A stretch of 64,000 nucleotides of DNA, taken from the NCBI GenBank assembly GCA_050123235.1, contig JASFHL010000006.1, forward strand, positions 1,707 through 65,706, read 5' to 3'. The stretch is from Candidatus Woesebacteria bacterium. GTDB taxonomy: Bacteria; Patescibacteriota; Microgenomatia; UBA1400; PJMF01. Below the pieces are notes generated by a model. The model saw nothing but the letters and a program-made list of their open reading frames with translations. It was not told the origin of the DNA and ran no database searches. Shown here piece by piece: positions 15,094-57,612 of this stretch (position 1 is its first letter; each line of letters starts with the position of its first letter). Both the position numbers and the translations under genes were made by a program.

Positions 15094-16608
15094 TTAATTA
15101 GAGTTATTGAGCTGTTTAACTGCACCTATAAATAAAATGTCATTATTATCTTTATTTAAAATTAAGAAAACAAAAGCTTTATTTACCTCCAACTCAAAAG
15201 CTTGATCAGTTTTAAATTCTTTGGTCGATGCTCCTAAAACCTGTTCCATTTCGGCATCAGTGACAGCAGTATTATCTGCTCCAGCTTCATCTATCTCTAT
15301 CAAGCTTTGGTGCATGACATTAGTCAAGGCTAGCTTTTTATCAGTCAGTTTTTTAAAATCCGCTTTTGAAGAAAAAGCTAGCTTAAGTCCAAGGGTTTCC
15401 AGAGCTTCTTTTAATTCTGTTTGATAACTGATATTAAATTTTGGTAAAGAAAAACTACCTTCTGTCTTAGCAAAATTTTCTAGCCAAGTATCTAAATTAC
15501 TTTGATTCAATTCAGAAAGAAAATCTTCTAGAGTATTTTTAGGTAAAAAGATATAAAGATTGAGATTTTTGTTTTTACCTAAAGGCAAAGCAACTGCCTG
15601 AAAAGCAGAGCTATCCAAATACATAAAGTCTTCTCTATACTGATTCATAAATGGAATCTTCTGACTTGAACCATCAACAGCAGTAAAATCTTTCTCTTGA
15701 TTAAGCTTTTTATCAAAACCATAAGTCCACAAGCCCTTAAAGGCAACAAGATTAGCCACATAAACTTGAGTGTCAGTTGCAGCTTGCACCTCTAGCTGAC
15801 TAGCATTTTCAGCTCCTAAACTTTCTTTTCTCCAGGCATCAATAGTTTTAACAGCATTTGGTCCAGCAAAATCAAGATTTTCAGCTTTAGCACCATAATA
15901 TTGTCTATTTGCTTCCAAAAACTCAGCCTTGAAATCAGCACCTTGCTGTGCCCAAACCGCATTAGCCAAATTTATTTTTATCTCTGGATCAGCGTTTTGA
16001 ATAAAGGCGATCAACTTAGCACTACCTTGATTAAGCTGAGTTAAGTCCATGCCTTTGATATTCAATCCTTCAGCAATTTCATCTTGAGTTTGATTGTTAG
16101 CACCGTTATTGAGCATTGAGAGAACCAGTGCGATGCTAGAAGGAGAAATAAAAACATTTTGATCTTGTTTTAAGGTAAGAACTTTAAAAAGATTAAGACC
16201 AAAAGAATTAAAAGCCAAGGGGAGATCACGAGTCTCTTGGTATTGTTTTTTATCATAAGTCACTTCTTTGGGTGTCGGCAAAACCGGAGGAATAGCTACA
16301 CTTTTATCAACTTGCTTACTTTTCCAGTCTTGATAGACATTCCAAGCTGCGAAGCAAAGAATAGCTAGTACAGCTAATAAAGCTACTATAGATATTAACT
16401 TGAAGACTGTTGGCTGTTGATCATTCTGTTGATTTATTTTTGCTTTCAAATCTGAGGCTTGAGGAGGTGGTTGAGTAGGGGGGCTAGGATCAGCTACAGG
16501 AAAAGTTTGATCTACATTATCATTGACAGCACTCATAGTTGGTGGAAGCTGACTTTGCTTAGCTACAGGCTGTTGTTTGGCATTAAAAACTGTATTTTCT
16601 TCTGACAT
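15094..16608 (-). CDS. membrane-anchored serpin-domain protein
   Basis: Pro/Gln-rich N-terminus plus one TM helix, then a serpin core (NLVAFKGLW; hinge EAGADNTAVTDA; C-terminal FVFLILNKDNNDILFIGAV). Confidence 0.7.
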   Translation of the reverse strand: MSEENTVFNAKQQPVAKQSQLPPTMSAVNDNVDQTFPVADPSPPTQPPPQASDLKAKINQQNDQQPTVFKLISIVALLAVLAILCFAAWNVYQDWKSKQVDKSVAIPPVLPTPKEVTYDKKQYQETRDLPLAFNSFGLNLFKVLTLKQDQNVFISPSSIALVLSMLNNGANNQTQDEIAEGLNIKGMDLTQLNQGSAKLIAFIQNADPEIKINLANAVWAQQGADFKAEFLEANRQYYGAKAENLDFAGPNAVKTIDAWRKESLGAENASQLEVQAATDTQVYVANLVAFKGLWTYGFDKKLNQEKDFTAVDGSSQKIPFMNQYREDFMYLDSSAFQAVALPLGKNKNLNLYIFLPKNTLEDFLSELNQSNLDTWLENFAKTEGSFSLPKFNISYQTELKEALETLGLKLAFSSKADFKKLTDKKLALTNVMHQSLIEIDEAGADNTAVTDAEMEQVLGASTKEFKTDQAFELEVNKAFVFLILNKDNNDILFIGAVKQLNNSN

Positions 16609-21661: not shown

Positions 21662-23536
21662 TTAAATTTTTATCAATTCTGGCTTTTCCAATTTTAAAAA
21701 ATCCTTCATTGACATCACTACCGAGCGATCATGGCGACCAACATTGAAAGCCATAGTTTTTTCTTTAGCTAAATCAGAATCTAAATAGGTTTTAAGCTGT
21801 ATGCTAGAACCAAAAGGTGGAATGGCACCAATTTCTAAAGCTGTTCTTTCTTTAACCTCTTCTTTTGAGGCCATAGTTAATTTACTTTCATTAAAATATT
21901 TTTTCAAAAGTTTAAAATCAGCCTTTTTATTTCCCGCTAAAACAAATAAAACATATTTTTTATTTTTATCTTTACCTAATCTTAAAACTAAAGCCTTAGC
22001 ACCTTGATGTGCAGCTGTTCCTCTAATTTTGGCTGCTTCTTCACTGGTATAAACAGGTTCATGAGCAAAATATTGATAATCAGCGCCACTGTTTTGTAAT
22101 TTATTGACAATAAAATCATGTGGACTTTGGCTCTCTACAGCAACAGCGATACCTAATTCATCAAGTTGATCAGCTTCCACTACGCTTGGCGCTGACATCA
22201 CGGCTGTGCGTCCAGTTGAGGTCATTGGGAAGGCAATCACTTCTTTTAATGAACTTTCTCCTGCCAATAACATCACTAAACGATCAATACCTAAAGCAAT
22301 GCCACCATGAGGAGGAGTCCCAAGTTCAAAAGCTTTGAGCATATGGCCAATACTATCTTCTATTTCTTGATCACTATAACCCATTATTTTAAAAGTAGAT
22401 TTAAGTAGTTCTGCTGTATGAGCGCGGATACTACCGCCACCTGCTTCATAGCCATTACAGACCAAGTCATACTGAGCAGTGATGATTTTATCAATATTAC
22501 GGCCTGCTAGATGATCCTCTATATGCTCTGGCAACGGGCTACTAAAAGGGTTATGAGTGAAAGTCCAGCCACTCTTGCCATCTTGTACTTCAGCAGCATC
22601 TTCTTTATCTACTTTTTTAAAAAAAGGAAAATTTACTACCCAAGCAAATGCTAAAACACCTTTCTTTTTTTCTTTTTCTGTTCTGAGATCAAATTTATCA
22701 TCCCCATATTTTTTAAGGGCATCTTGATAATTAATGACTGGAAAAGTCTCATCTTTGAGTTTGCCACCAACTGCTTTGATAGCAGTCTTGACCAATTCTT
22801 CTACTACTTGCATCACTTCCTCTTGACTAGCAAAGCTTAGCTCTAAATCAAACTGAGTAAACTCAAAACCTCTGTCAGATCTTAAATCCTCATCACGAAT
22901 ACAACGAGCAACTTGGAAATATCTTTCCAGCCCTGCAGTCATTAATAGCTGTTTATATTGTTGAGGGCTTTGAGGTAAAGCATAAAACTTACCCAGCTGA
23001 AAACGAGAAGGGACAATAAAGTCTCTAGCACCTTCTTTGGTTGATTTAGTTAAGATTGGTGTTTCAACTTCTACAAAATCTTGCTTGAACAAATGCTCCC
23101 TTAAAGCCCTAATAAATTCTGACCTCAGACGCATAATCTTTTGCATTCTATCTCGTCTCAAATCTAGATAGCGGTATTTCAATCTCACTTCTTCACCGAT
23201 TTCCTTACCATCACCGTCAAGAGAAATTGGCAAATCAATTGATTTGTTCAAAATCTTGTAACTTTCAAGTTCCAGCTCAACTTTACCGGTAGCAATCTTT
23301 TCATTAAAGTTAGCCTTATCTCGTTGTTTGACTATGCCAATCACCTCTACCACAGATTCAACTGTTAAATCTCTTAATTGATTATCGACTCCCACGCATT
23401 GAATGAACCCTGTTCTATCCCTTAAATCAATGAAAGTAACTTTACCATGATCACGTTTACTATTCACCCAGCCTTGGAGCTTAATCTTTTTACCAACAGA
23501 TTTGGGGGCATGGTGGATGAGTGTGCGTGTCTGCAT
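21662..23536 (-). CDS. aspS: aspartate--tRNA ligase lacking the GAD insertion domain, fused to a C-terminal YbaK/ProX-like deacylase domain
   Basis: Bacterial-type motifs QSPQQYKQLLM, FEFTQFDLELSF, GGGSIR and GIALGIDRL. Only ~135 aa lie between motifs 2 and 3. About 160 aa follow the usual end with KALVLRL...IGAIPPFG...VGRHDRSVVMS, which is YbaK-like. Confidence 0.85.
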   Translation of the reverse strand: MQTRTLIHHAPKSVGKKIKLQGWVNSKRDHGKVTFIDLRDRTGFIQCVGVDNQLRDLTVESVVEVIGIVKQRDKANFNEKIATGKVELELESYKILNKSIDLPISLDGDGKEIGEEVRLKYRYLDLRRDRMQKIMRLRSEFIRALREHLFKQDFVEVETPILTKSTKEGARDFIVPSRFQLGKFYALPQSPQQYKQLLMTAGLERYFQVARCIRDEDLRSDRGFEFTQFDLELSFASQEEVMQVVEELVKTAIKAVGGKLKDETFPVINYQDALKKYGDDKFDLRTEKEKKKGVLAFAWVVNFPFFKKVDKEDAAEVQDGKSGWTFTHNPFSSPLPEHIEDHLAGRNIDKIITAQYDLVCNGYEAGGGSIRAHTAELLKSTFKIMGYSDQEIEDSIGHMLKAFELGTPPHGGIALGIDRLVMLLAGESSLKEVIAFPMTSTGRTAVMSAPSVVEADQLDELGIAVAVESQSPHDFIVNKLQNSGADYQYFAHEPVYTSEEAAKIRGTAAHQGAKALVLRLGKDKNKKYVLFVLAGNKKADFKLLKKYFNESKLTMASKEEVKERTALEIGAIPPFGSSIQLKTYLDSDLAKEKTMAFNVGRHDRSVVMSMKDFLKLEKPELIKI

Positions 23537-25717: not shown

Positions 25718-25899
25718 AAAGTGATGGGTTCACTCAGCTCATTCAAGATGCAATGAGCTGAGTAAAGTTATCATTGCGTTGTGCTAATGGGCGCTTCCTT
25801 TCGATTGGTAAAGCAGACAACCCTCCGGGGGCATTTTTCCCAGCTCTTAAAAAACACAACCCTTTAGTAAAAAATCATAGTCTCTGCTAAAATTTAATT

Positions 25900-27147
25900 A
25901 TGTCAAGACAATCCTTCATTCGCTACTTAGTAGTAATCCTCATCACCACTGCCATCATTGCTCCCTTAAGCATTCTTTTATCTAAAAAAATTGATTTCAA
26001 TCAAGCTGATCCCTTCACCAACCCTTTTGTAGACCAAGCAAAACAAAAAGAGCTACCACTGCTACAATATTCCATCCCTAATCTAAAAAAAAGAGCCTAT
26101 TACCCCAGTCAAATTAAAATTGAAAGCTTAATTGACGAATTTGAAGAATACAATGCCTATCTTTTTTCCTATACGACCATGAATAAAAAAATGACTGGCC
26201 AGCTCAATATCCCACACACTGCTTATACTAAAAATAAATCAGCAGTGATTATCATGCTACGCGGTTATGTACCCAAAGAAATTTACCAATCTGGAGTTGG
26301 TACTAAAAATGCAGCTGCTGTTTTGGCTAAAAATGGCTACATTACTTTGGCGCCTGATTTTTTTGGTTTTGGAGACAGTGCTGAAGAACCAGAAGATAGC
26401 TGGGAGGGGAGATTTATCAAACCCATTAATGTGATCGAATTAGTTGAAACAGTTAAACAAAATCCTAAAATCAAAATCCCTGAAGACTTAGCTGCGACTG
26501 ATACTGCTAAAGAAAGTGTAAAAACTGATAGTGAGACAGAAGCTGAGCAAGAAGAAGACGAATCAGAAAAAACAGGACCTAGCATTAAACTTGATCCTCA
26601 GAAAATTGGTATTTGGGCTCATAGTAATGGCGGACAAATCGCGCTCACTACTCTGGAAGTTCTATCAGAAGAGATCCCGACTACTCTCTGGGCACCGGTG
26701 ACAGCACCTTTTCCTTATTCAATCTTGTTCTTCAGCGATGAAGTAGAAGACGAGGGCAAAGAAAGCCGAGCTTGGGTAGCTTTATTTGAAAAAGATTATG
26801 ATGTTTTTGATTTCAGCCTCACTCAGCACCTTGATAAGCTCACTGGACCATTACAAATCCATCATGGCACTAGTGATGATGCAGCTTTAATTGCTTGGTC
26901 GGATGAATTTGTAAGCAAAATTAAAAAAGAAAACCAAAGACGAAAAGAATTATCAGCAGAATCAAAAATGCAAAATTCCGATTCTAAGCAAAAAGAAAAA
27001 ACAGATGAAGATCAAGAAGAGATAGAACTTCCTCTAAATCAAATCCAGGTTACTTACCATCGTTATCCTGGGGCTAATCATAATCTACAACCAGCTTGGG
27101 ATACGGCCGTAAAAAGAGATTTGGACTTTTTTGCAGAAAATTTATAA
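25900..27147 (+). CDS. membrane-anchored alpha/beta-hydrolase (S9 / dienelactone-hydrolase-like)
   Basis: N-terminal TM. GxSxG nucleophile elbow GIWAHSNGGQIA, with downstream D and H candidates. Confidence 0.6.
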   Translation: MSRQSFIRYLVVILITTAIIAPLSILLSKKIDFNQADPFTNPFVDQAKQKELPLLQYSIPNLKKRAYYPSQIKIESLIDEFEEYNAYLFSYTTMNKKMTGQLNIPHTAYTKNKSAVIIMLRGYVPKEIYQSGVGTKNAAAVLAKNGYITLAPDFFGFGDSAEEPEDSWEGRFIKPINVIELVETVKQNPKIKIPEDLAATDTAKESVKTDSETEAEQEEDESEKTGPSIKLDPQKIGIWAHSNGGQIALTTLEVLSEEIPTTLWAPVTAPFPYSILFFSDEVEDEGKESRAWVALFEKDYDVFDFSLTQHLDKLTGPLQIHHGTSDDAALIAWSDEFVSKIKKENQRRKELSAESKMQNSDSKQKEKTDEDQEEIELPLNQIQVTYHRYPGANHNLQPAWDTAVKRDLDFFAENL

Positions 27148-41996: not shown

Positions 41997-42030
41997 AGTA
42001 TACCCCCGGGGGGTATGTGAGTCAAGCTTC
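41997..42030 (-). promoter_or_regulatory. gdhA promoter TTGACT-N17-TATACT with the ATACCCCC-G-GGGGGTAT palindrome (CsoR/RcnR-type operator) in the spacer
   Basis: Reverse complement of plus 41995-42027 reads gcTTGACTcacataccccccgggggTATACT. Palindrome at plus 42002-42018. Confidence 0.5.
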
Positions 42031-47795: not shown

Positions 47796-47826
47796 AAGAT
47801 TAATTTATTAGTTAAAGTATTTGAGT

Positions 47827-48003
47827 GAATCTCTAAAATATTATTATATATAAATCTTGCACACGTTCGCTGCAACATTTTATTTTTGTTTTAGATACAA
47901 GGCTCACTCGGTGAAGCTCGGTAGTAGATGAATTGCTAGCTCGAATCTAGCCAGACCTCGCTTCAACGGTAAAGATTTATATATAATAATATTTTAGAGA
48001 TTC
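47827..48003. repeat. perfect 32-bp inverted repeat (47827-47858 / 47972-48003) enclosing a 113-nt GC-richer core between trxA and trxB; the core is copy C of the 3'-UTR repeat family
   Basis: Arm gaatctctaaaatattattatatataaatctt and its exact reverse complement. Confidence 0.6.
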
Positions 48004-48033
48004 TAATCAAAGCACTAACTAATTAAACATTTA

Positions 48034-48381
48034 TTAATCTAAAACTCCCTCAATCATGGCTTTTAAGCCGGCTTCACCTGGAAAACCTACTTGTCGTTTT
48101 ACTTCTTTGATCTTTTTTCCATCAGCTTCAAAAATAATAACAGTAGGAATACTCATCACACCATATTCTTTAGCAGTAGTTTGATTTTCATCAACATTGA
48201 CTTTAACAATCATAATTTTATCTTTATATTCATCAGCTAATTTATCAATGATAGGGGCTGCCATTTGACAAGGCCCACACCAATCAGCATAAAAATCAAC
48301 CATTACTGGCTTGCCTGCTTTTTGAATACTTTGTTTAAAGTTATCATCATTTAGATGAGCTGCGCCTTTTTTGTCTGCCAT
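48034..48381 (-). CDS. trxA: thioredoxin
   Basis: WCGPC active site. Confidence 0.9.
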   Translation of the reverse strand: MADKKGAAHLNDDNFKQSIQKAGKPVMVDFYADWCGPCQMAAPIIDKLADEYKDKIMIVKVNVDENQTTAKEYGVMSIPTVIIFEADGKKIKEVKRQVGFPGEAGLKAMIEGVLD

Positions 48382-48410: not shown

Positions 48411-48704
48411 TTAATATCTAAAAATCTCTTTTAAAATTTGATCTAGTTGTTTTATATTTCGTTCCTTGGAACAACGACTTGCTTCATTGCTTAGCAAATC
48501 TCTAGCCACTCTACCTAAAGAATTACGAGCTGCAATTACTTGTCTCACAATATCAATGCACATTCTTTCATCTTCATACATTTTAATCAAGCCGTCGATT
48601 TGACCTCTAATTCTTCTCAGTTGCTGAGCAACTTTGTCTTCTGTTTTATCTTTAGAGATTATAGAAATTTTTTTTAATTTTTTGTTTCGCTTTACTCGTG
48701 ACAT
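48411..48704 (-). CDS. CsoR/RcnR/FrmR-family (DUF156) metal/redox-sensing transcriptional repressor
   Basis: 97-aa protein with LRRIRGQIDGLIKMYEDERMCIDIVRQV...RC. The sensor positions read Cys...Asn...Cys rather than Cys-His-Cys. Confidence 0.7.
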   Translation of the reverse strand: MSRVKRNKKLKKISIISKDKTEDKVAQQLRRIRGQIDGLIKMYEDERMCIDIVRQVIAARNSLGRVARDLLSNEASRCSKERNIKQLDQILKEIFRY

Positions 48705-50695: not shown

Positions 50696-51124
50696 ATGCC
50701 AGAAAGTAAAAAAACAGAAAAAAAAAGAGAACATATCAAGAGCCCTTTCAGCATCTACTTTAATATGCTTAGTGAGATTGATAAGGGAGCGAGGTATTCC
50801 AAAGAATATGGGTCTATTCTTATCTTAGGTCTAGTAGAAGAGATTGGAGAAATGGCTAGAGCTTACCTCGCAGAACATGGACGTAAAAAAACAAATATAG
50901 CGGCTCAACTGGATGAAACCTATCAACAGGAATTAGGTGACATTCTATTAGTGATTCTAAGATTTGCCAGAATTAAAAAAATTAATTTACATGACAGAAT
51001 CATGTATTCGATGAAAAAAATTCAAAAAAGAAAAGCCCAACCTAAAGGAGCAAAAAAATTAAAAGTTTCTCTAAGCGATGCCAAGACCAAAAAAGTAAAA
51101 ACAAAGAAAAATCAAACTCCTTAA
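50696..51124 (+). CDS. MazG-like nucleotide pyrophosphohydrolase with lysine-rich C-terminal tail
   Basis: EExGE-like EEIGEMARAY and ELGDILLVILRFA helices. Confidence 0.5.
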   Translation: MPESKKTEKKREHIKSPFSIYFNMLSEIDKGARYSKEYGSILILGLVEEIGEMARAYLAEHGRKKTNIAAQLDETYQQELGDILLVILRFARIKKINLHDRIMYSMKKIQKRKAQPKGAKKLKVSLSDAKTKKVKTKKNQTP

Positions 51125-51192
51125 GCTAAATCTCTAAATCTTCCACCAGGGTTATACTTAAGAATTACTGCTAAATAAAAAAAGAGTTCTAG

Positions 51193-51612
51193 CTATTTAT
51201 CCTTCCTCCCCAAACGTCTTTCAACCATCACACATCTATCGTGCACTACTTCGATTTGATTTTTTTGACAAAAGCTAATTGCTTTTTCACTCTCACTACC
51301 TGGCTGCAACCAAACTTTTTTTATACCTAGCTTTTTAACTTCTGTTAATACTCGCTCTGTAACAGCTGGTGGCACTACAAAAATCACCATTTCAATTTTG
51401 TCTTTGACATCACTTAGATGAGCGTAAACTTTTTGCCCTAAAATTTTTTTTTCTTTTAAATTAATAGGGATAACATTAAAACCAGCATCAGTGAGGTCTT
51501 TTAAAATTTTATAACCATATTTTTCAGGGTTAGCGGAGGCCCCAACTAGGGCGAAAATCTTCTTTTTTAGCATTTTGTTCCTCTTTCCATTTTTCCGTAC
51601 GTTTTGTTTCAA
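51193..51612 (-). CDS. CoA-binding domain protein (YccU-like)
   Basis: IFALVGASANPEKYGYKILKDL motif. Likely true start at an internal Met near 51573. Confidence 0.65.
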   Translation of the reverse strand: MKQNVRKNGKRNKMLKKKIFALVGASANPEKYGYKILKDLTDAGFNVIPINLKEKKILGQKVYAHLSDVKDKIEMVIFVVPPAVTERVLTEVKKLGIKKVWLQPGSESEKAISFCQKNQIEVVHDRCVMVERRLGRKDK

Positions 51613-52027
51613 GGATCTCTTCTAACAATCCTCCAAAATTTGGTTTTTTTCTCACTTGTATTACGTGACGGATATAATCTTGTGTTATTTGAAGACACTC
51701 TATAGCTAAAAGAGCTTCACAATTCAAATGATTGGCAAAATAATCAACAAGAATTCTAGCGTGGTTTCGATTGATTGTAATGTGATAATACCAGCTAAGC
51801 TCTGCTTGATTTGGGTAAAAACCATCTTCTTGCAATCCAGGATCACAAATAGGGCAAAGGGCCAATAGTTCTTCTAATCCATCAACATTAAAACGAGGTC
51901 TATCATACTTCTCATTAAGTTCTCGTCTTTGTTCATCAGGAAGATCATGCCACATTTCCATACCAAAAATATGCGGATATTTACGATTTTCTTTCATTTC
52001 TGAATCACTTGAAATTTCTCTCTCCAT
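51530..52027 (-). CDS. hypothetical protein
   Basis: ORF with a CPICD motif. Its 3' end overlaps the next ORF. Confidence 0.35.
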   Translation of the reverse strand: MEREISSDSEMKENRKYPHIFGMEMWHDLPDEQRRELNEKYDRPRFNVDGLEELLALCPICDPGLQEDGFYPNQAELSWYYHITINRNHARILVDYFANHLNCEALLAIECLQITQDYIRHVIQVRKKPNFGGLLEEILETKRTEKWKEEQNAKKEDFRPSWGLR

Positions 52028-52088
52028 AATAAAATTGCTCCTTTTAATTAATGCTATACTAACAATTATAATATCAACTTAAGAAAAT

Positions 52089-53261
52089 ATGAACTCAAAA
52101 AAATCAATTTATCTAGACTATGCTGCCACCACCCCTGTTGATCCCAGAGTAATAAAAGCTATGCTGCCTTATTTTAATAAAAAATTTGCTAATGCTGCTA
52201 CTATCTATAAACTAGGATTGGAAGCTAAAAAAGCAGTTGAAGACAGTCGCAGGCTTATGGCTGAAGCTCTGGGCGCAGTAAATAAAGAAGTTTTCTTTAC
52301 CAGCAGTGCTACTGAAAGCAATAATACAGTGCTAAAAGGGATTGCTTTTGCTAATAAAGATAAGGGCAATCACATTATCATTTCTGAAATTGAGCATGAC
52401 TGTATTCTCAATAGCGCTAAGTGGCTAAAAAAACAAGGTTTTAAAATCACTAGACTGAAAGTAGATGATCGTTATGGCCGCATTCATCCAAAATCTGTGG
52501 CAAAAGCTATCACTGATGAGACTATCTTAGTCTCTATTCTTCATGCTAATAATGAAATTGGTACTATTCAAGATATTGCCAAAATTGGACAAATCTGCAG
52601 ACAAAAAGGAGTGTATTTTCATACTGATGCTGCTCAAAGTTTTGCCAAAATACCAATTAATATCAAGGAAATGAACATTGATCTGCTAACTGCCTCTGCC
52701 CACAAAATCTATGGTCCAAAAGGAGTAGCGCTACTCTATATAAAACAGGGAGTAGCAATTGAACCACTATTGCATGGAGGTGGTCAAGAATCTAATATGC
52801 GTTCTTCTACTAGCAATACCGCAGCCATTGTCGGCTTTGCCAAAGCCACTGAGCTTTGTTTAGCAGAGATGGAAAAAGAATCTAAAAGACTGACTAAACT
52901 GCGTGACAAAGTGATTAAAACTGTTTTATCTAAAATTCCAGAGACTAGTTTAAATGGCCATCCCACTGAGAGATTAGCTAACAATATTAATCTTTCCTTT
53001 TCCTTTGTGGAAGGGGAGTCGATTATTTTGTTACTAGATGCAGCTGGCATCTCGGCGTCGACTGGCTCTGCCTGTTCATCCAAGAACTTAGAGCCTTCAC
53101 ATGTTTTAAAATCCTGTGGCATTAAAGCTGAAAAAATTCATGGCTCATTAAGGCTGAGTCTTGGTCGCTGGACTAATGAAAAAGACATTGATTATTTGTT
53201 AAAAACTTTGCCTGCTATTATCAAAAAACTTAGAAAAGTCTCACCTTTTAGAAAAAAATAA
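52089..53261 (+). CDS. iscS: cysteine desulfurase
   Basis: LDYAATTP N-terminus, SAHKIYGPKG PLP-lysine motif, C-terminal SSGSAC. Confidence 0.9.
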   Translation: MNSKKSIYLDYAATTPVDPRVIKAMLPYFNKKFANAATIYKLGLEAKKAVEDSRRLMAEALGAVNKEVFFTSSATESNNTVLKGIAFANKDKGNHIIISEIEHDCILNSAKWLKKQGFKITRLKVDDRYGRIHPKSVAKAITDETILVSILHANNEIGTIQDIAKIGQICRQKGVYFHTDAAQSFAKIPINIKEMNIDLLTASAHKIYGPKGVALLYIKQGVAIEPLLHGGGQESNMRSSTSNTAAIVGFAKATELCLAEMEKESKRLTKLRDKVIKTVLSKIPETSLNGHPTERLANNINLSFSFVEGESIILLLDAAGISASTGSACSSKNLEPSHVLKSCGIKAEKIHGSLRLSLGRWTNEKDIDYLLKTLPAIIKKLRKVSPFRKK

Positions 53262-53264
53262 TAT

Positions 53265-53786
53265 TTGTATTATGAGAAAATTTTTATGTACACAAAAAAA
53301 GTAATGCAGCATTTTCAAAATCCTAAAAATACAGGTAAATTAAAAAATCCTGATGGAATCGGCAAAGTGGGCAATATTGTCTGTGGAGATGTAATGCATC
53401 TTTATATTAAAGTGGGAAAAAATAAAAAAAATGATAATATTCTGAAAGATATTAAATTTGAGACTTTTGGTTGTGCTGCAGCCATTGCAACGAGTAGTAT
53501 CATCACCGACTTAGCCAAAGGGCAAACTTTGGAGCAAGCTTTAAAAATAAATAAAAATAAGGTTGTGGACTCATTGGGTGGTTTGCCACCAGTAAAAGTG
53601 CATTGCTCAATCTTAGCAGTTGATGCTCTTAGTGAAGCTATTTATGATTATTTGAAAAAAAATAAAAAAGCAATTCCTGCAGACTTAAAAAAAAGACACC
53701 TGCGAATTCAAAAAGAAAAAAAACTCATCAAAGAAAAATATCGTGAATGGACAGAAGGGCAAGAAAAAACCCTAACAAATGAATAG
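53265..53786 (+). CDS. iscU: Fe-S cluster assembly scaffold IscU/NifU with extended basic C-terminus
   Basis: GxVxCGD and FGCAAAIATSS cysteine ligand motifs. Confidence 0.85.
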   Translation: MYYEKIFMYTKKVMQHFQNPKNTGKLKNPDGIGKVGNIVCGDVMHLYIKVGKNKKNDNILKDIKFETFGCAAAIATSSIITDLAKGQTLEQALKINKNKVVDSLGGLPPVKVHCSILAVDALSEAIYDYLKKNKKAIPADLKKRHLRIQKEKKLIKEKYREWTEGQEKTLTNE

Positions 53787-53860
53787 GCTGGATAGTTTCC
53801 ATCAATCAATATACTACCGAGCTTCATGGAATGAGCCTCACTCTATGACGATCTTTATCC
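53787..53860 (+). repeat. 3'-UTR repeat family copy A, with invariant 14-mer ACTACCGAGCTTCA at 53814-53827
   Basis: Alignable over ~70 nt with copies at 55925-56000 and the reverse complement of 47859-47971. Confidence 0.45.
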
Positions 53861-54545
53861 TTGACCCATCTAACTGGGCTTTTTCACCACTAGTGGATTT
53901 AATTTGCACCATGTATTGATTATTGCCAGCAGTTAAAGCCAAAGCTGGAGAACTTTTCCAAGTTGAACTGCTAGTATTATGAAAAATTTCTGAATTATGA
54001 AAGATATGACCTGTAGTTTTATTAATTAATCTAGCATGCACCTCACCACCAATGATTGATAAAGCTGCCTGAAGTTCGATATTTTTGACTTTGGGATAAT
54101 TACTACTATTAATATATGCGACTGCTGAACTCATATCAGTCCATTCTCGGCTGGTAGTACTGCCTGTGCCTAAATAAACAAAATATTCTTTGACAGCGGG
54201 TTGAGCAGAACTTTGGGGAATAGTGCTTTTAGCTGCGGGTTTTTTTTCTAAAGCAGTAATTCTAGATTTTAAATCTTGTATTTCAGCTGCCAAACTAGCA
54301 ATGCTGGCTTTATTTTCCTGAACCTGTGTGTCTATTGAAGAACTTTTCTCTTCGCCTAAAGTAGAATCAGCAAGTAAACTTGAATCTTCTGTATCTGTTT
54401 CTGAAGAACTACCAAGAATCTTTTCTAGGTTTTGGTTAAATTGCTTAAGTTTTTGTGAAGTAGATAAAGAAAAAATCCACAAAGCTATTAAGTTAGCAAT
54501 TATAAATAAAGTAAATAAAAAAATTAATTTAGAAAATTTGGGCAT
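53838..54545 (-). CDS. hypothetical secreted/anchored protein with coiled-coil
   Basis: N-terminal TM/signal; no recognisable motif. Confidence 0.4.
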   Translation of the reverse strand: MPKFSKLIFLFTLFIIANLIALWIFSLSTSQKLKQFNQNLEKILGSSSETDTEDSSLLADSTLGEEKSSSIDTQVQENKASIASLAAEIQDLKSRITALEKKPAAKSTIPQSSAQPAVKEYFVYLGTGSTTSREWTDMSSAVAYINSSNYPKVKNIELQAALSIIGGEVHARLINKTTGHIFHNSEIFHNTSSSTWKSSPALALTAGNNQYMVQIKSTSGEKAQLDGSRIKIVIE

Positions 54546-54630
54546 TCAAATTAAGTATAGCAGAGATGCTCATTGCTATGCTAAATAAAATAAAGATATT
54601 GACAAATTTAAAACAGTTATAGGAATAAAA

Positions 54631-55176
54631 TTACCAAATTTTAGCTTTACTTCCTGCTTTGGGCCTTTTGTGAGCGGCTATTCTAGTTTGGGGAAAATCC
54701 ATTTTATCTCCACCTTCTCCTTGAAGACGACGTCTGCGTCTCCTCCTCTCTATTTTAGGCTTCTTTTTTGGTTTTTTTACTTTTCTTTCTTCTAGCCCCG
54801 AATCAGTACCTAAATCAGCCTCAGTTTCTTCTACTTTGACATCAGTAATCTTATCTCCATCCATCACACATTTAAAAGTTAGGCCATTGACAGAAAAAGT
54901 CTGAATAACTTCACTGCCTTCTAACTTCGAGTCTGGGAAAATGTTTGCTCTACGCAATTTGCCAAAAACATTGGGAGTATTATCACTTGGTTCATTGAGT
55001 ATAGCTATTAGTCCCTCCTTAGCTTCTTCTTCCTCAAGTAAAACTTTTGCTCCTAAGTTGGCTAGCTGATCAGTTAAGTTGTCTAATGCTTCCGGCTCCT
55101 CTGCTATCACAATTTTTTCCAACATAATTCCTCCTAAAAGTCTAATAATTATTATCACTCTAGCAAAAAGTATCAA
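54631..55176 (-). CDS. hypothetical protein with arginine-rich C-terminal tail
   Basis: ORF with an RRRRRR basic stretch. Start probably at an internal Met. Confidence 0.3.
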   Translation of the reverse strand: MILFARVIIIIRLLGGIMLEKIVIAEEPEALDNLTDQLANLGAKVLLEEEEAKEGLIAILNEPSDNTPNVFGKLRRANIFPDSKLEGSEVIQTFSVNGLTFKCVMDGDKITDVKVEETEADLGTDSGLEERKVKKPKKKPKIERRRRRRRLQGEGGDKMDFPQTRIAAHKRPKAGSKAKIW

Positions 55177-55283
55177 AGAAAACTAGCACTGAAACAAAAA
55201 AAATAGACTTTAGTAAACAATTGTACTTTTTCAATAACTTTAATATACTGCTCATATAAACTTATTAATTAAATCCAAAACAG

Positions 55284-55907
55284 ATGTTAAAAACAATTTT
55301 GCCAACTAAATTATTTAAAATAGTCATTATTACGCTATTTCTTAGCTGTTTAGCAGTTTTCCTATGGTGGAAACAAAGTAATTTAAATTCCAAGTTTAAA
55401 CTAAACTTAGATCAAGCAGCAGTTATTAAAGAGATTCAGGAATTAAATAAATTAGAAACAGCCTCTTTTAACATTGAAAAAATCATTGATGCTGGTACAG
55501 ATGCTAATCAATTTAAAGAATTTTTATTTGGTGATCGTATTTTATTAATCGCCCATGGCAGAGTAGTTGCCGGTATTGATTTGTCTAAAATTGAAGGAAA
55601 AGATATCCAGATTAATGAAGAAAGCAAAGAATTGAAAATCAAACTAGCTGCCCCTCAAATATTTCACACTATTATTGATAATGAAAAAACTAAAGTCTAC
55701 GACAGAAAAAAAGGCATTTTAACTAAAGGTCAAAAAGATCTTGAGGCTCAAGCACGCCAAGCTGCAGAGGAAAGCATCCAAGAGGCTGCTTGTGAAGCTG
55801 ATATCCTAGATATTGCAGCTACCAGCGCAGAAAAACAACTGATTATTCTTTTTAAGGCATTGGGTTTTGAATCAGTAATTATTAAAATTGAGAAAGGAAA
55901 CTGTTAG
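55284..55907 (+). CDS. DUF4230-like membrane-anchored protein
   Basis: N-terminal TM. RVVAGIDLSKIEG...KVYD pattern recalled for DUF4230. Confidence 0.45.
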   Translation: MLKTILPTKLFKIVIITLFLSCLAVFLWWKQSNLNSKFKLNLDQAAVIKEIQELNKLETASFNIEKIIDAGTDANQFKEFLFGDRILLIAHGRVVAGIDLSKIEGKDIQINEESKELKIKLAAPQIFHTIIDNEKTKVYDRKKGILTKGQKDLEAQARQAAEESIQEAACEADILDIAATSAEKQLIILFKALGFESVIIKIEKGNC

Positions 55908-55924
55908 TGAGTTCACTACACAAC

Positions 55925-56000
55925 AATTTTAGAGCGTTGAAGTGGAGTCTGGTTGGATTTAAATTGGCAATAAATACACTACCGAGCTTCAGCGAATCAA
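55925..56000 (+). repeat. 3'-UTR repeat family copy B, with 14-mer at 55978-55991 and flanking 8-bp stem CGTTGAAG/CTTCAGCG
   Basis: See copy A. Lies between convergent genes. Confidence 0.45.
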
Positions 56001-56003
56001 AAT

Positions 56004-56855
56004 CTATTTATACTCCACAAAGTATTTAATATTAGCGTTTGCTTTTAGCTCCTCCAACCAAGTTTGAAATTCTTCACTTAGTTTTTGTTGTTTGATTTGT
56101 TCTGTGACTGTGCTTCTTAACTCTGCTTCTTCAGTAGCTTCAGTCACTTCCGGCAGATATTCTTTATTGTCTTCCAAATATTGATCAATATCTTCGTCAG
56201 TTATTTGAACTTTATCTGCAAGCAACTTTTCAATTAGTTTTTGTAGTTTAACATTTCTTATTAGTTCATCCTTACTCATTCCCTGCAATTCCAAAAACTG
56301 ATCTAAACTAAAACCTTGTGAAGAAAAATTTTCTTCCAACTTAACAAGTTCAGCATCCATTTCTTCTTGAGAAATAGAAACATTAAGTTTGCTAGATTCT
56401 TGGAAAATAAGAGTTTCCAAAACTAAAGAATCCATAATTTGTTTACCATAACGTTGCTCGGATCTCGACACTACTGAAAATCTACTAATTGGCTGACCAT
56501 TAATTAAAGCCACTACCAACAGACCTTTGAAAAAATAAATGCCTACAGCCAAAATTAAAAGCGCTGCAAATCCAAAAAATTTTCTTCTAGACATTTGCTT
56601 AATATTATTAATGAACGAAAGAACTGTTTTCGCTGTAGTTTTAATAATTTCTACATTTCTAACTGTAGCTACAATATTTTGATCTTTTTCTTTTTTAACT
56701 GTCTTCTCAGTAGCTGCTCTTTTTTTGGTAATTTTTTTACTCACTTTACTAACAGTTTTTCTTTTAGCAGTAGCCTTTGATTGAGAGCCTTTTTTAACTG
56801 CTGTAGTTGTTTGTCTTTTGGAAGTCTTTGATGCTTTTTTTGCCATAATGTGCAA
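56004..56855 (-). CDS. hypothetical basic N-terminus/TM protein with SurA-N-like chaperone region
   Basis: Lysine-rich N-terminus, one TM, helical domain. Family assignment weak. Confidence 0.4.
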   Translation of the reverse strand: MHIMAKKASKTSKRQTTTAVKKGSQSKATAKRKTVSKVSKKITKKRAATEKTVKKEKDQNIVATVRNVEIIKTTAKTVLSFINNIKQMSRRKFFGFAALLILAVGIYFFKGLLVVALINGQPISRFSVVSRSEQRYGKQIMDSLVLETLIFQESSKLNVSISQEEMDAELVKLEENFSSQGFSLDQFLELQGMSKDELIRNVKLQKLIEKLLADKVQITDEDIDQYLEDNKEYLPEVTEATEEAELRSTVTEQIKQQKLSEEFQTWLEELKANANIKYFVEYK

Positions 56856-56979
56856 AGTATATCATAAATAAGTCTTAATGAAACTGGAAAAATATAGTAT
56901 AAATGAAAATCTAAATAAGCTGTTTTTGCAGATTTAGCATTATAGTTATCTAGCCATTGATATGGCTATAGTTTATAGC

Positions 56980-57612
56980 TCAGGATTTAAAATCATTTAA
57001 TAAAGCAATAACTTCTTCATCGCTAACTTGTCCGAATTCTTGATAATAAGAACCAATAGCACCTTTAAAAAACCATGGTTCTTCTAAACTGATCAGTTCA
57101 TCAACATTTTTTCTTAAATCTGCGGCAGTATCTTTAGGCAATACAGGCACAGCAATCACAATTTTTTTTGGTTTTTGTTTTTTAATATCCAAAATAGCTG
57201 CTTTGATAGTCAGACCTGTGGCAATACCATCATCAACAATGATGGCAACTTTGTTTGTGGCTGATAGACGCTTCTTTTCAGCTAAATAAACTTTACTTCT
57301 TCTGATTGCTTCTTGCTGTTCTTTTTTTACTTCTTTTTTAAGCCAATCCTGATTTATTATCTTGCGCTCGGCTTCATTGCAGACTAAACTACCACCTTCA
57401 GCCAAAGCACAAATTGCATATTCAGCTGAACTAGGATGCCCTATTTTACGCGGGATGATTAAATCTAGGGGAGCCTTTAACTGTCTAGCTATTTCAACAC
57501 CCAAGACTATTCCACCACGAGGTAAAGAGTACAAAACTACATCTTGGTTTTTATATTTCAATAAAGCTTGAGCTAGTTTTTTAGCAGCTTCAAGACGGTT
57601 TTTAAACTGCAT
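56980..57612 (-). CDS. predicted phosphoribosyltransferase
   Basis: VAIIVDDGIATGLT PRPP-binding motif. Confidence 0.7.
   Translation of the reverse strand: MQFKNRLEAAKKLAQALLKYKNQDVVLYSLPRGGIVLGVEIARQLKAPLDLIIPRKIGHPSSAEYAICALAEGGSLVCNEAERKIINQDWLKKEVKKEQQEAIRRSKVYLAEKKRLSATNKVAIIVDDGIATGLTIKAAILDIKKQKPKKIVIAVPVLPKDTAADLRKNVDELISLEEPWFFKGAIGSYYQEFGQVSDEEVIALLNDFKS

Follow-up and report, generated by a model that had tools for sequence, protein, structure and literature searches.

The window analysed here, a 64,000-nt stretch of contig JASFHL010000006.1 from Candidatus Woesebacteria bacterium (assembly GCA_050123235.1), contains three related segments, designated copies A, B and C, which lie within 8 kb of one another and in spacers at gene ends. 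Copy A occupies the entire 51-nt spacer between the iscU stop codon (TAG, 53784-53786), which it overlaps, and the stop codon (TGA, 53838-53840) of a convergent 235-aa open reading frame (ORF). Copy B is situated between two convergent genes, a DUF4230 gene (stop at 55907) and a SurA_N-like gene (stop at 56004), 28 nt past the stop of the former and 8 nt ahead of the stop of the latter. Copy C lies in the trxA-trxB spacer and begins 66 nt past the trxA stop codon. A first-pass annotation, made from the letters and translated ORFs of the window, had placed the start of each copy within about 20 nt of the upstream stop codon, which applies to copy A only, and had noted that each copy follows the orientation of its upstream gene. 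Since A and B are each flanked by convergent genes, they would be sense to one of the two whichever way they pointed, so that the second statement is automatically true for these two copies and uninformative; only copy C provides a real test of orientation.

The three segments are copies of one real, short, non-coding repeat module of approximately 60-70 nt. They share a 14-mer, ACTACCGAGCTTCA, whose only exact sites in the window are 47912-47925 (minus strand, copy C), 53813-53826 (plus strand, copy A) and 55978-55991 (plus strand, copy B). When up to two mismatches to the 14-mer were permitted, one extra, unrelated site was found; the mean in shuffled sequence was 0.22 and none of 100 shuffles matched the observed count. 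Significant homology around the 14-mer extended over 53-69 nt. A repeat search aligned copy B (55935-55995) with copy C (47908-47968) over 61 nt at 75% identity and copy A (53786-53838) with copy C (47900-47952) over 53 nt at 74%, and Smith-Waterman local alignments of copy against copy gave z values of 12-15, equalled in 0 of 300 shuffles. Both the homology of the segments and the identity of the 14-mer had been claimed from the first pass and were borne out, while the limits then given were not: copy A ends at 53838 rather than 53860, and a 41-nt portion of copy C on its 3' side is unshared. Within the 60 columns common to A, B and C, 31 are invariant and include an uninterrupted run of 14 (P~5e-4, permutation). 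This indicates that the 14-mer is under specific constraint.

Outside the shared core the copies are diverged and their ends differ in a modular fashion, with B lacking the TGAGCCT block, A carrying internal deletions and C having the additional 41 nt. With a G+C content of 43-52%, the copies are richer than typical spacers (10-30%) and than the inverted-repeat arms that flank copy C (15%). The sequences of A and B were identical in an independent Logan assembly (L122), and the 238-nt length of the trxA-trxB spacer was seen again in a JGI assembly, indicating that the repeat is not an assembly artefact. Shared coding sequence from gene ends, which the first-pass annotation had named as a possible source of the similarity, does not account for it, as no frame is free of stops in all three copies and synonymous variation is absent from the 14-mer.

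The trxA-trxB spacer (47796-48033) is almost wholly one palindrome, with arms of 55-62 nt running from the trxA stop codon to the trxB start codon and a 113-nt centre holding copy C (Table 1). Folded as RNA, the whole spacer gave -72.6 kcal/mol (z = -9.5), with the stop codon of trxA and the start codon of trxB both at the base of the predicted stem. The closest relatives (L133-L139; TrxB 67-69% identity) retain the gene order dnaG, csoR-like, trxA, trxB. Their trxA-trxB spacers measure 42 nt (L133), 30 nt (L136) and 97 nt (L139), compared with 238 nt here, and contain Shine-Dalgarno sequences and no similarity to the element. Subtraction of a 177-nt unit (32+113+32) leaves a spacer of about 61 nt, within the range of the relatives. 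The filled and empty sites that characterize a miniature inverted-repeat transposable element (MITE) are both present at this junction. As copy C lies between perfect 32-nt inverted repeats and the spacers of the relatives are free of the element, the unit is a derived and lineage-specific insertion.

The trxB gene lacks a Shine-Dalgarno sequence in this genome, and the relatives have AAGGGAAGG or AAGGAG. The spacer of L133 contains a short AT hairpin, TTTTAACTA-N7-TAGTTAAAA, which is like the outer, imperfect part of the arms in the present genome; a plausible inference is that the insertion went into the loop of a hairpin already in place. A conventional hairpin, CACCTGC-N13-GCAGGTG with a T-run in the loop region, lies in the 97-nt spacer of L139 (positions 710-806 of that sequence), so ordinary stem-loops do occur at this junction in relatives.

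Table 1. Coordinates of the repeat copies, the inverted repeats at trxA-trxB and the hairpins predicted within the copies
Feature	Position in window	Strand	Description
Copy C core	47900-47968	-	Most complete copy: 5' arm CGTTGAAGC, hairpin 1, CAAT, 14-mer, 3' GAGTGAGCCT; covariance model score 97 bits
Copy B	55935-55995	+	3' TGAGCCT block missing; covariance model score 93 bits
Copy A	53779-53838	+	Secure homology 53786-53838; gapped alignment reaches ATGAA at 53779; covariance model score 52 bits
C-specific segment, 41 nt	47859-47899	-	Between core and downstream arm; no counterpart in A or B
Inverted repeat, upstream arm	47972-48026	-	55 nt at 82%; inner 32 nt (47972-48003) perfectly complementary to 47827-47858 (BLAST 32-mer)
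Inverted repeat, downstream arm	47804-47858	-	Ends 8 nt ahead of the trxB ATG (47795)
Hairpin 1, copy C	47935-47951	-	GCUAG-N7-CUAGC; predicted by RNAalifold
Hairpin 1, copy B	55952-55968	+	GUUGG-N7-UUGGC, four G-U pairs; predicted by RNAalifold
Hairpin 1, copy A	53787-53803	+	GCUGG-N7-CCAUC; predicted by RNAalifold
Alternative hairpin 2, copy C	47899-47919	-	GAGCUUCAC-CGA-GUGAGCCUU; predicted by RNAalifold; copy A equivalent at 53819-53839; weak in B

Further copies were sought in approximately 73 kb of this genome, consisting of the window and about 9 kb added from the Logan assemblies L121 and L122. No fourth copy was found there by matching the 14-mer with three mismatches, by nhmmer with the --max setting or with a covariance model run with filters off, and approximately 160 kb from relatives likewise yielded no copy. 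A covariance-model search had been suggested in the first-pass annotation as a way of counting copies; it returned A, B and C alone. Larger collections, in which the source genome is not included, yielded only chance matches with non-homologous flanks: seven in JGI metagenome contigs for CAAT-N6-14-mer, 113 in IMG/VR for the 14-mer alone and six in GTDB representative genomes for the 14-mer followed by NNGART. A full-text literature search for the 14-mer was without a match. The nearest homologue of the DUF4230 protein was 55% identical, and the nearest TrxB homologues were those at 67-69%. The element was not found downstream of DUF4230 orthologues from three lineages or of iscU orthologues from two, where the downstream neighbours were overlapping or unrelated, and the synteny of DUF4230 and of iscS/iscU was not kept in the relatives that were retrieved. 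Together with the element-free trxA-trxB spacers of the relatives, this indicates that the element is not a conserved attribute of these gene 3' ends and was gained in this lineage. As far as can be seen, it is restricted to this lineage of Candidatus Woesebacteria.

The gene content around A and B also differs between lineages. The block that separates dnaG from a phosphoribosyltransferase gene (50696-57612) encodes MazG, a CoA-binding protein, iscS-iscU, two hypothetical proteins, DUF4230 and the SurA_N-like protein. In the closest relatives (L133 and L136) it is replaced by xseA/xseB, an RRM protein gene and a hypothetical gene. This lineage-specific block includes copies A and B, and its edge is 2.7 kb from copy C.

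Structure prediction placed an internal hairpin (hairpin 1) in all three copies, with a conserved stem and variable sequence. Copies B and C can in addition be closed by a stem, P1, of nine positions (CGUUGAAGY/GCUUCANCG). A closing stem of TGAAG and CTTCA had been proposed for the element on first inspection; it holds, in this extended form, for B and C, while A has only ATGAA/TTCAT, with the 5' arm falling within the last iscU codons. For A and C an alternative hairpin 2 was predicted, in which GAGCUUCA, a part of the 14-mer, is paired with UGAGCCUY. Hairpin 2 uses the 3' half of the 14-mer, the same bases as P1, so that the two predicted helices are mutually exclusive. Pairing in P1 plus hairpin 1 was 92% on the strand chosen in the first-pass annotation and 79.5% on the opposite strand; for hairpin 1 alone the values were 93% (sense) and 67% (antisense). 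One pair was changed on both sides (A-U to G-C) and several were changed to G-U. Compensatory change was examined with the three available sequences and no measure of covariation exceeded the shuffle control. Single-sequence RNA folding gave z values of only -1.2 to -1.5, and folding as single-stranded DNA gave no consistent signal (z: A, +0.5; B, -2.45; C, -0.06). The structural results as a whole suggest, without amounting to proof, a strand-specific single-stranded fold, either in RNA or in single-stranded DNA. The initial label of a 3' untranslated region (UTR) family was not established, given that the orientation of A and B carries no information and covariation did not rise above controls.

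The repeat is real, non-coding and restricted to this lineage, and copy C is a demonstrably derived insertion. Our preferred interpretation, held tentatively at a probability of roughly 0.45, is that it is a lineage-specific, small, selfish or mobile modular intergenic repeat of the MITE-, Correia-, ERIC- or BOX-like kind that is co-transcribed with its neighbours. The first-pass annotation had listed three types of role, namely RNA stability or processing, a protein or small-RNA binding site and a small mobile repeat resembling REP elements or MITEs. The mobile or selfish option has gained support, because the copy C insertion is missing in the closest syntenic relatives and the element was not found after orthologous iscU, DUF4230 or trxA genes. 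Under this interpretation the element would be a small, non-autonomous mobile repeat of intergenic DNA, or what trimming has left of such a repeat, persisting only where insertion is harmless, namely in gene-end spacers. Copy C still resides within a unit bounded by inverted repeats and inserted at an operon junction, while A and B would be older copies that deletion has reduced to a core bounded by a pair of stop codons. The recognition site of the enzyme that copies or moves the element would be the invariant 14-mer, which adjoins a hairpin conserved in its stem and variable in its sequence. The copies would be passively co-transcribed with iscU, DUF4230 and trxA-trxB and would form stem-loops in those RNAs. 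At copy C the stem of about 55 bp would bring the stop codon of trxA close to the start codon of trxB and could present an RNase III-type substrate.

Several observations weigh against a mobile origin. Only three copies are known, all in 8 kb, with none in the other ~65 kb of the same genome, and local duplication would explain such clustering as readily as transposition. None of the window genes examined encodes a transposase, an integrase or a RAYT (REP-associated tyrosine transposase). No target-site duplication borders the perfect 32-nt repeats; an AT-only 8-nt direct repeat, TAATAAAT, is present at the outer edges of the long arms (48029-48036 and 47803-47810) and may be due to chance (estimated probability ~0.05-0.1). 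The inverted repeats, both the perfect 32 nt and the 55-62 nt with mismatches, occur at C only and are lacking in A and B. The flanks of copy B, ATTTTAGAG (55926-55934) and GAATCAAAAT (55994-56003), resemble the outer ends of the perfect repeats of C, where the counterparts are GAATCTCTAAAAT and ATTTTAGAGATTC at 47991-48003 and 47827-47839, with a similarity that is within chance; they may be a remnant of the same inverted repeats or an AT-rich coincidence. Finally, nearly all the non-Watson-Crick pairs in the proposed helices are G-U on one strand, that chosen in the first-pass annotation, as a functional RNA would likewise predict.

An alternative is a cis-acting structured RNA in the iscU and DUF4230 3'-UTRs and the trxA-trxB spacer, closed by P1, with hairpin 1 inside it and a 3' hairpin that competes with P1 for the GCUUCA of the 14-mer. 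Such an RNA would serve as a stabilizer, a processing site or a conformational switch. We consider such a role possible but doubtful. The strand asymmetry of pairing, the double-sided pair change and the changes to G-U are consistent with it, as is the raised G+C content within an AT-rich genome. The invariant block corresponds to the strands common to the two mutually exclusive helices, and all three neighbouring gene sets belong to Fe-S/thiol redox functions or adjoin such genes. However, covariation did not exceed shuffle controls with three sequences, the folding z values of single copies were low, no Rfam family matched, gene orientation is informative for one copy only and the element is missing at the orthologous genes of every relative examined. 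A more specific model, in which a new regulatory RNA of this Woesebacteria lineage, forming a module of 3'-UTRs or operon spacers, toggles its GCUUCA-containing 14-mer between P1 and the downstream hairpin, the 55-bp stem excises the trxA-trxB copy and the stability or processing of Fe-S and thioredoxin mRNAs is controlled in an organism without canonical terminators at these sites, would be rather unlikely. The long stem at trxA-trxB could also be read as the means by which copy C, as a small RNA gene of ~113 nt, is excised from the trxA-trxB transcript in the manner of rRNA precursors, with A and B being partial pseudo-copies or sites that pair with C or its antisense. The stem of ~55 bp (32 bp perfect) enclosing 113 nt and the folding z of -9.5 would fit, the upstream arm contains a promoter-like TTGATT-N16-TATTAT, and transcripts of the convergent genes would carry reverse complements of A and B, including 14 nt perfectly complementary to C. 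Promoter-like matches were, however, not more frequent than in shuffled sequence (36 versus 30), no known RNA family matched and the insertion is missing in relatives, so that a small RNA gene appears improbable.

Perfect conservation of 14 nt while the flanks drift, together with the clustering of the sites in 8 kb, would also be compatible with an element acting at the DNA level, the 14-mer being a candidate site for a regulator, a nucleoid protein or a recombinase, or an uptake or polar signal. To this we give little credence: the 14-mer is not palindromic, all three sites are at gene ends rather than promoters, the adjacent 40-50 nt are homologous too, which a simple operator would not need, and the absence of a GC-skew switch in the window leaves a link to an origin or terminus unsupported. 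Very improbable is a small peptide (..LAIxxLPSFxE) or a relic of a gene 3' end. Short ORFs do lie over C (47904-47966 on the minus strand, 20 aa) and B (55907-56029 on the plus strand, 40 aa), and one frame shares LK..L..F.LAI..LPSF.E, but copy A is interrupted by two in-frame stops and a Shine-Dalgarno sequence is lacking. Between B and C, first codon positions carry the most substitutions, no synonymous change affects the fully conserved L-P-S-F codons, which lie under the 14-mer, and a phmmer search of the 40-aa copy B ORF against 1.84 billion representative proteins returned only two spurious matches to repeat proteins. A coding function was rejected on these grounds.

Other identities were also rejected. 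At the gathering threshold, Rfam 15 families matched the whole window at two tRNAs only, both elsewhere, and searches around the three copies at E values up to 10 gave chance-level matches without meaningful overlap of the core; 5S RNA, signal recognition particle RNA, 6S RNA and ribozymes were excluded by the lack of any match at this level. ARAGORN detected no tRNA or tRNA-like structure at the copies, and 11 of 12 alignments to the two tRNAs of the window were at shuffle level, the remaining comparison, of copy A with tRNA-Arg, being marginal (z 2.9). No terminator-like site was present at 47800-48030, 53787-53840 or 55908-56003 and no T-run follows any of the three copies, in agreement with the first-pass annotation that the element is not a canonical intrinsic terminator. 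A polarity signal of a replication origin or terminus was rejected, as GC skew does not switch in the window.

Some further features of the window were recorded. A csoR-like gene lies at 48411-48704, and a perfect G/C-cored palindrome, ATACCCCCGGGGGGTAT, at 42000-42016 in a 153-nt spacer resembles a CsoR/RcnR-type operator. An unusually G+C-rich (40%) spacer of 182 nt (25718-25899) upstream of an ORF at 25900 had no Rfam match at the gathering threshold; it includes a 12-bp hairpin (ACTCAGCTCATT ... AATGAGCTGAGT) at 25732-25763 and a CCCTCCGGGGG tract. The window also encodes a serpin (15094-16608; Pfam E = 5e-84) and a class II aminoacyl-tRNA synthetase of the D/K/N type with a fused C-terminal YbaK-like tRNA_edit domain (21662-23536), both unusual for so small a genome.

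Candidate Phyla Radiation (CPR) genomes are tiny and nearly free of repeats. To our knowledge, almost nothing is known about mobile non-coding DNA or RNA regulation in these bacteria, and a literature search for MITEs in CPR found no relevant paper. The insertion of a repeat inside the conserved trxA-trxB junction indicates that CPR genomes still gain selfish or regulatory non-coding DNA, and this junction provides a concrete locus at which to ask in what way an operon copes with, or makes use of, a hairpin-forming insertion of 177 nt. Were the element a functional RNA, it would represent a new lineage-specific regulatory motif. At present it is a modest, well-defined curiosity resting on three copies.

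Comparison with known systems places the element closest to small intergenic repeats of other bacteria. Integron attC sites also lie at gene 3' ends and form imperfect hairpins with conserved ends, a variable centre and strand-specific folding. An attC identity was nevertheless rejected: the core sites are in reversed order, running from a 5' GTTGAAG to a 3' GCTTCA rather than as RYYYAAC...GTTRRRY, the flanking genes (iscU, trxA/trxB and DUF4230) are housekeeping genes and not cassettes, and no integrase was seen among the genes inspected in the window. Repetitive extragenic palindromic (REP) sequences and bacterial interspersed mosaic elements (BIMEs) are approximately 35 nt long, begin with a conserved 5' GT[AG]G tetranucleotide and are mobilized by RAYT transposases. 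Like the Woesebacteria element, they are found between convergent genes and in operon spacers as short imperfect palindromes with a conserved asymmetric motif, and when co-transcribed in 3'-UTRs they can stabilize mRNA, a further likeness that may be drawn. This identity was likewise rejected, as the element has a unit of 60-70 nt and no conserved GT[AG]G head, and the window showed no gene resembling a Y1 (RAYT) transposase.

BOX elements of Streptococcus pneumoniae (boxA/boxB/boxC) show a shared core with differing flanking modules, an intergenic location and stem-loops, and modules vary in the same way among the copies described here, namely the 5' arm, the 3' TGAGCCT block, the extra 41 nt and the inverted repeats. 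The two are unrelated in sequence, copy number is far lower here and independent recurrence of modules, as in BOX, was not shown. Correia elements of Neisseria (CREE/NEMIS) and ERIC/IRU elements of enterobacteria are small and non-coding, have long terminal inverted repeats and lie between co-transcribed genes; long hairpins in Correia-containing transcripts are cleaved by RNase III. The Woesebacteria element differs from them in having no sequence similarity, inverted repeats in one of three copies, no visible TA target duplication, three known copies rather than hundreds and a host that is a CPR bacterium with a very small genome. In its general design the 177-nt unit of copy C is like these elements, being small, non-coding, bounded by long inverted repeats, situated between co-transcribed genes and present or absent between related genomes, and its transcript would be predicted to fold as a long RNA hairpin of the type cleaved by RNase III.

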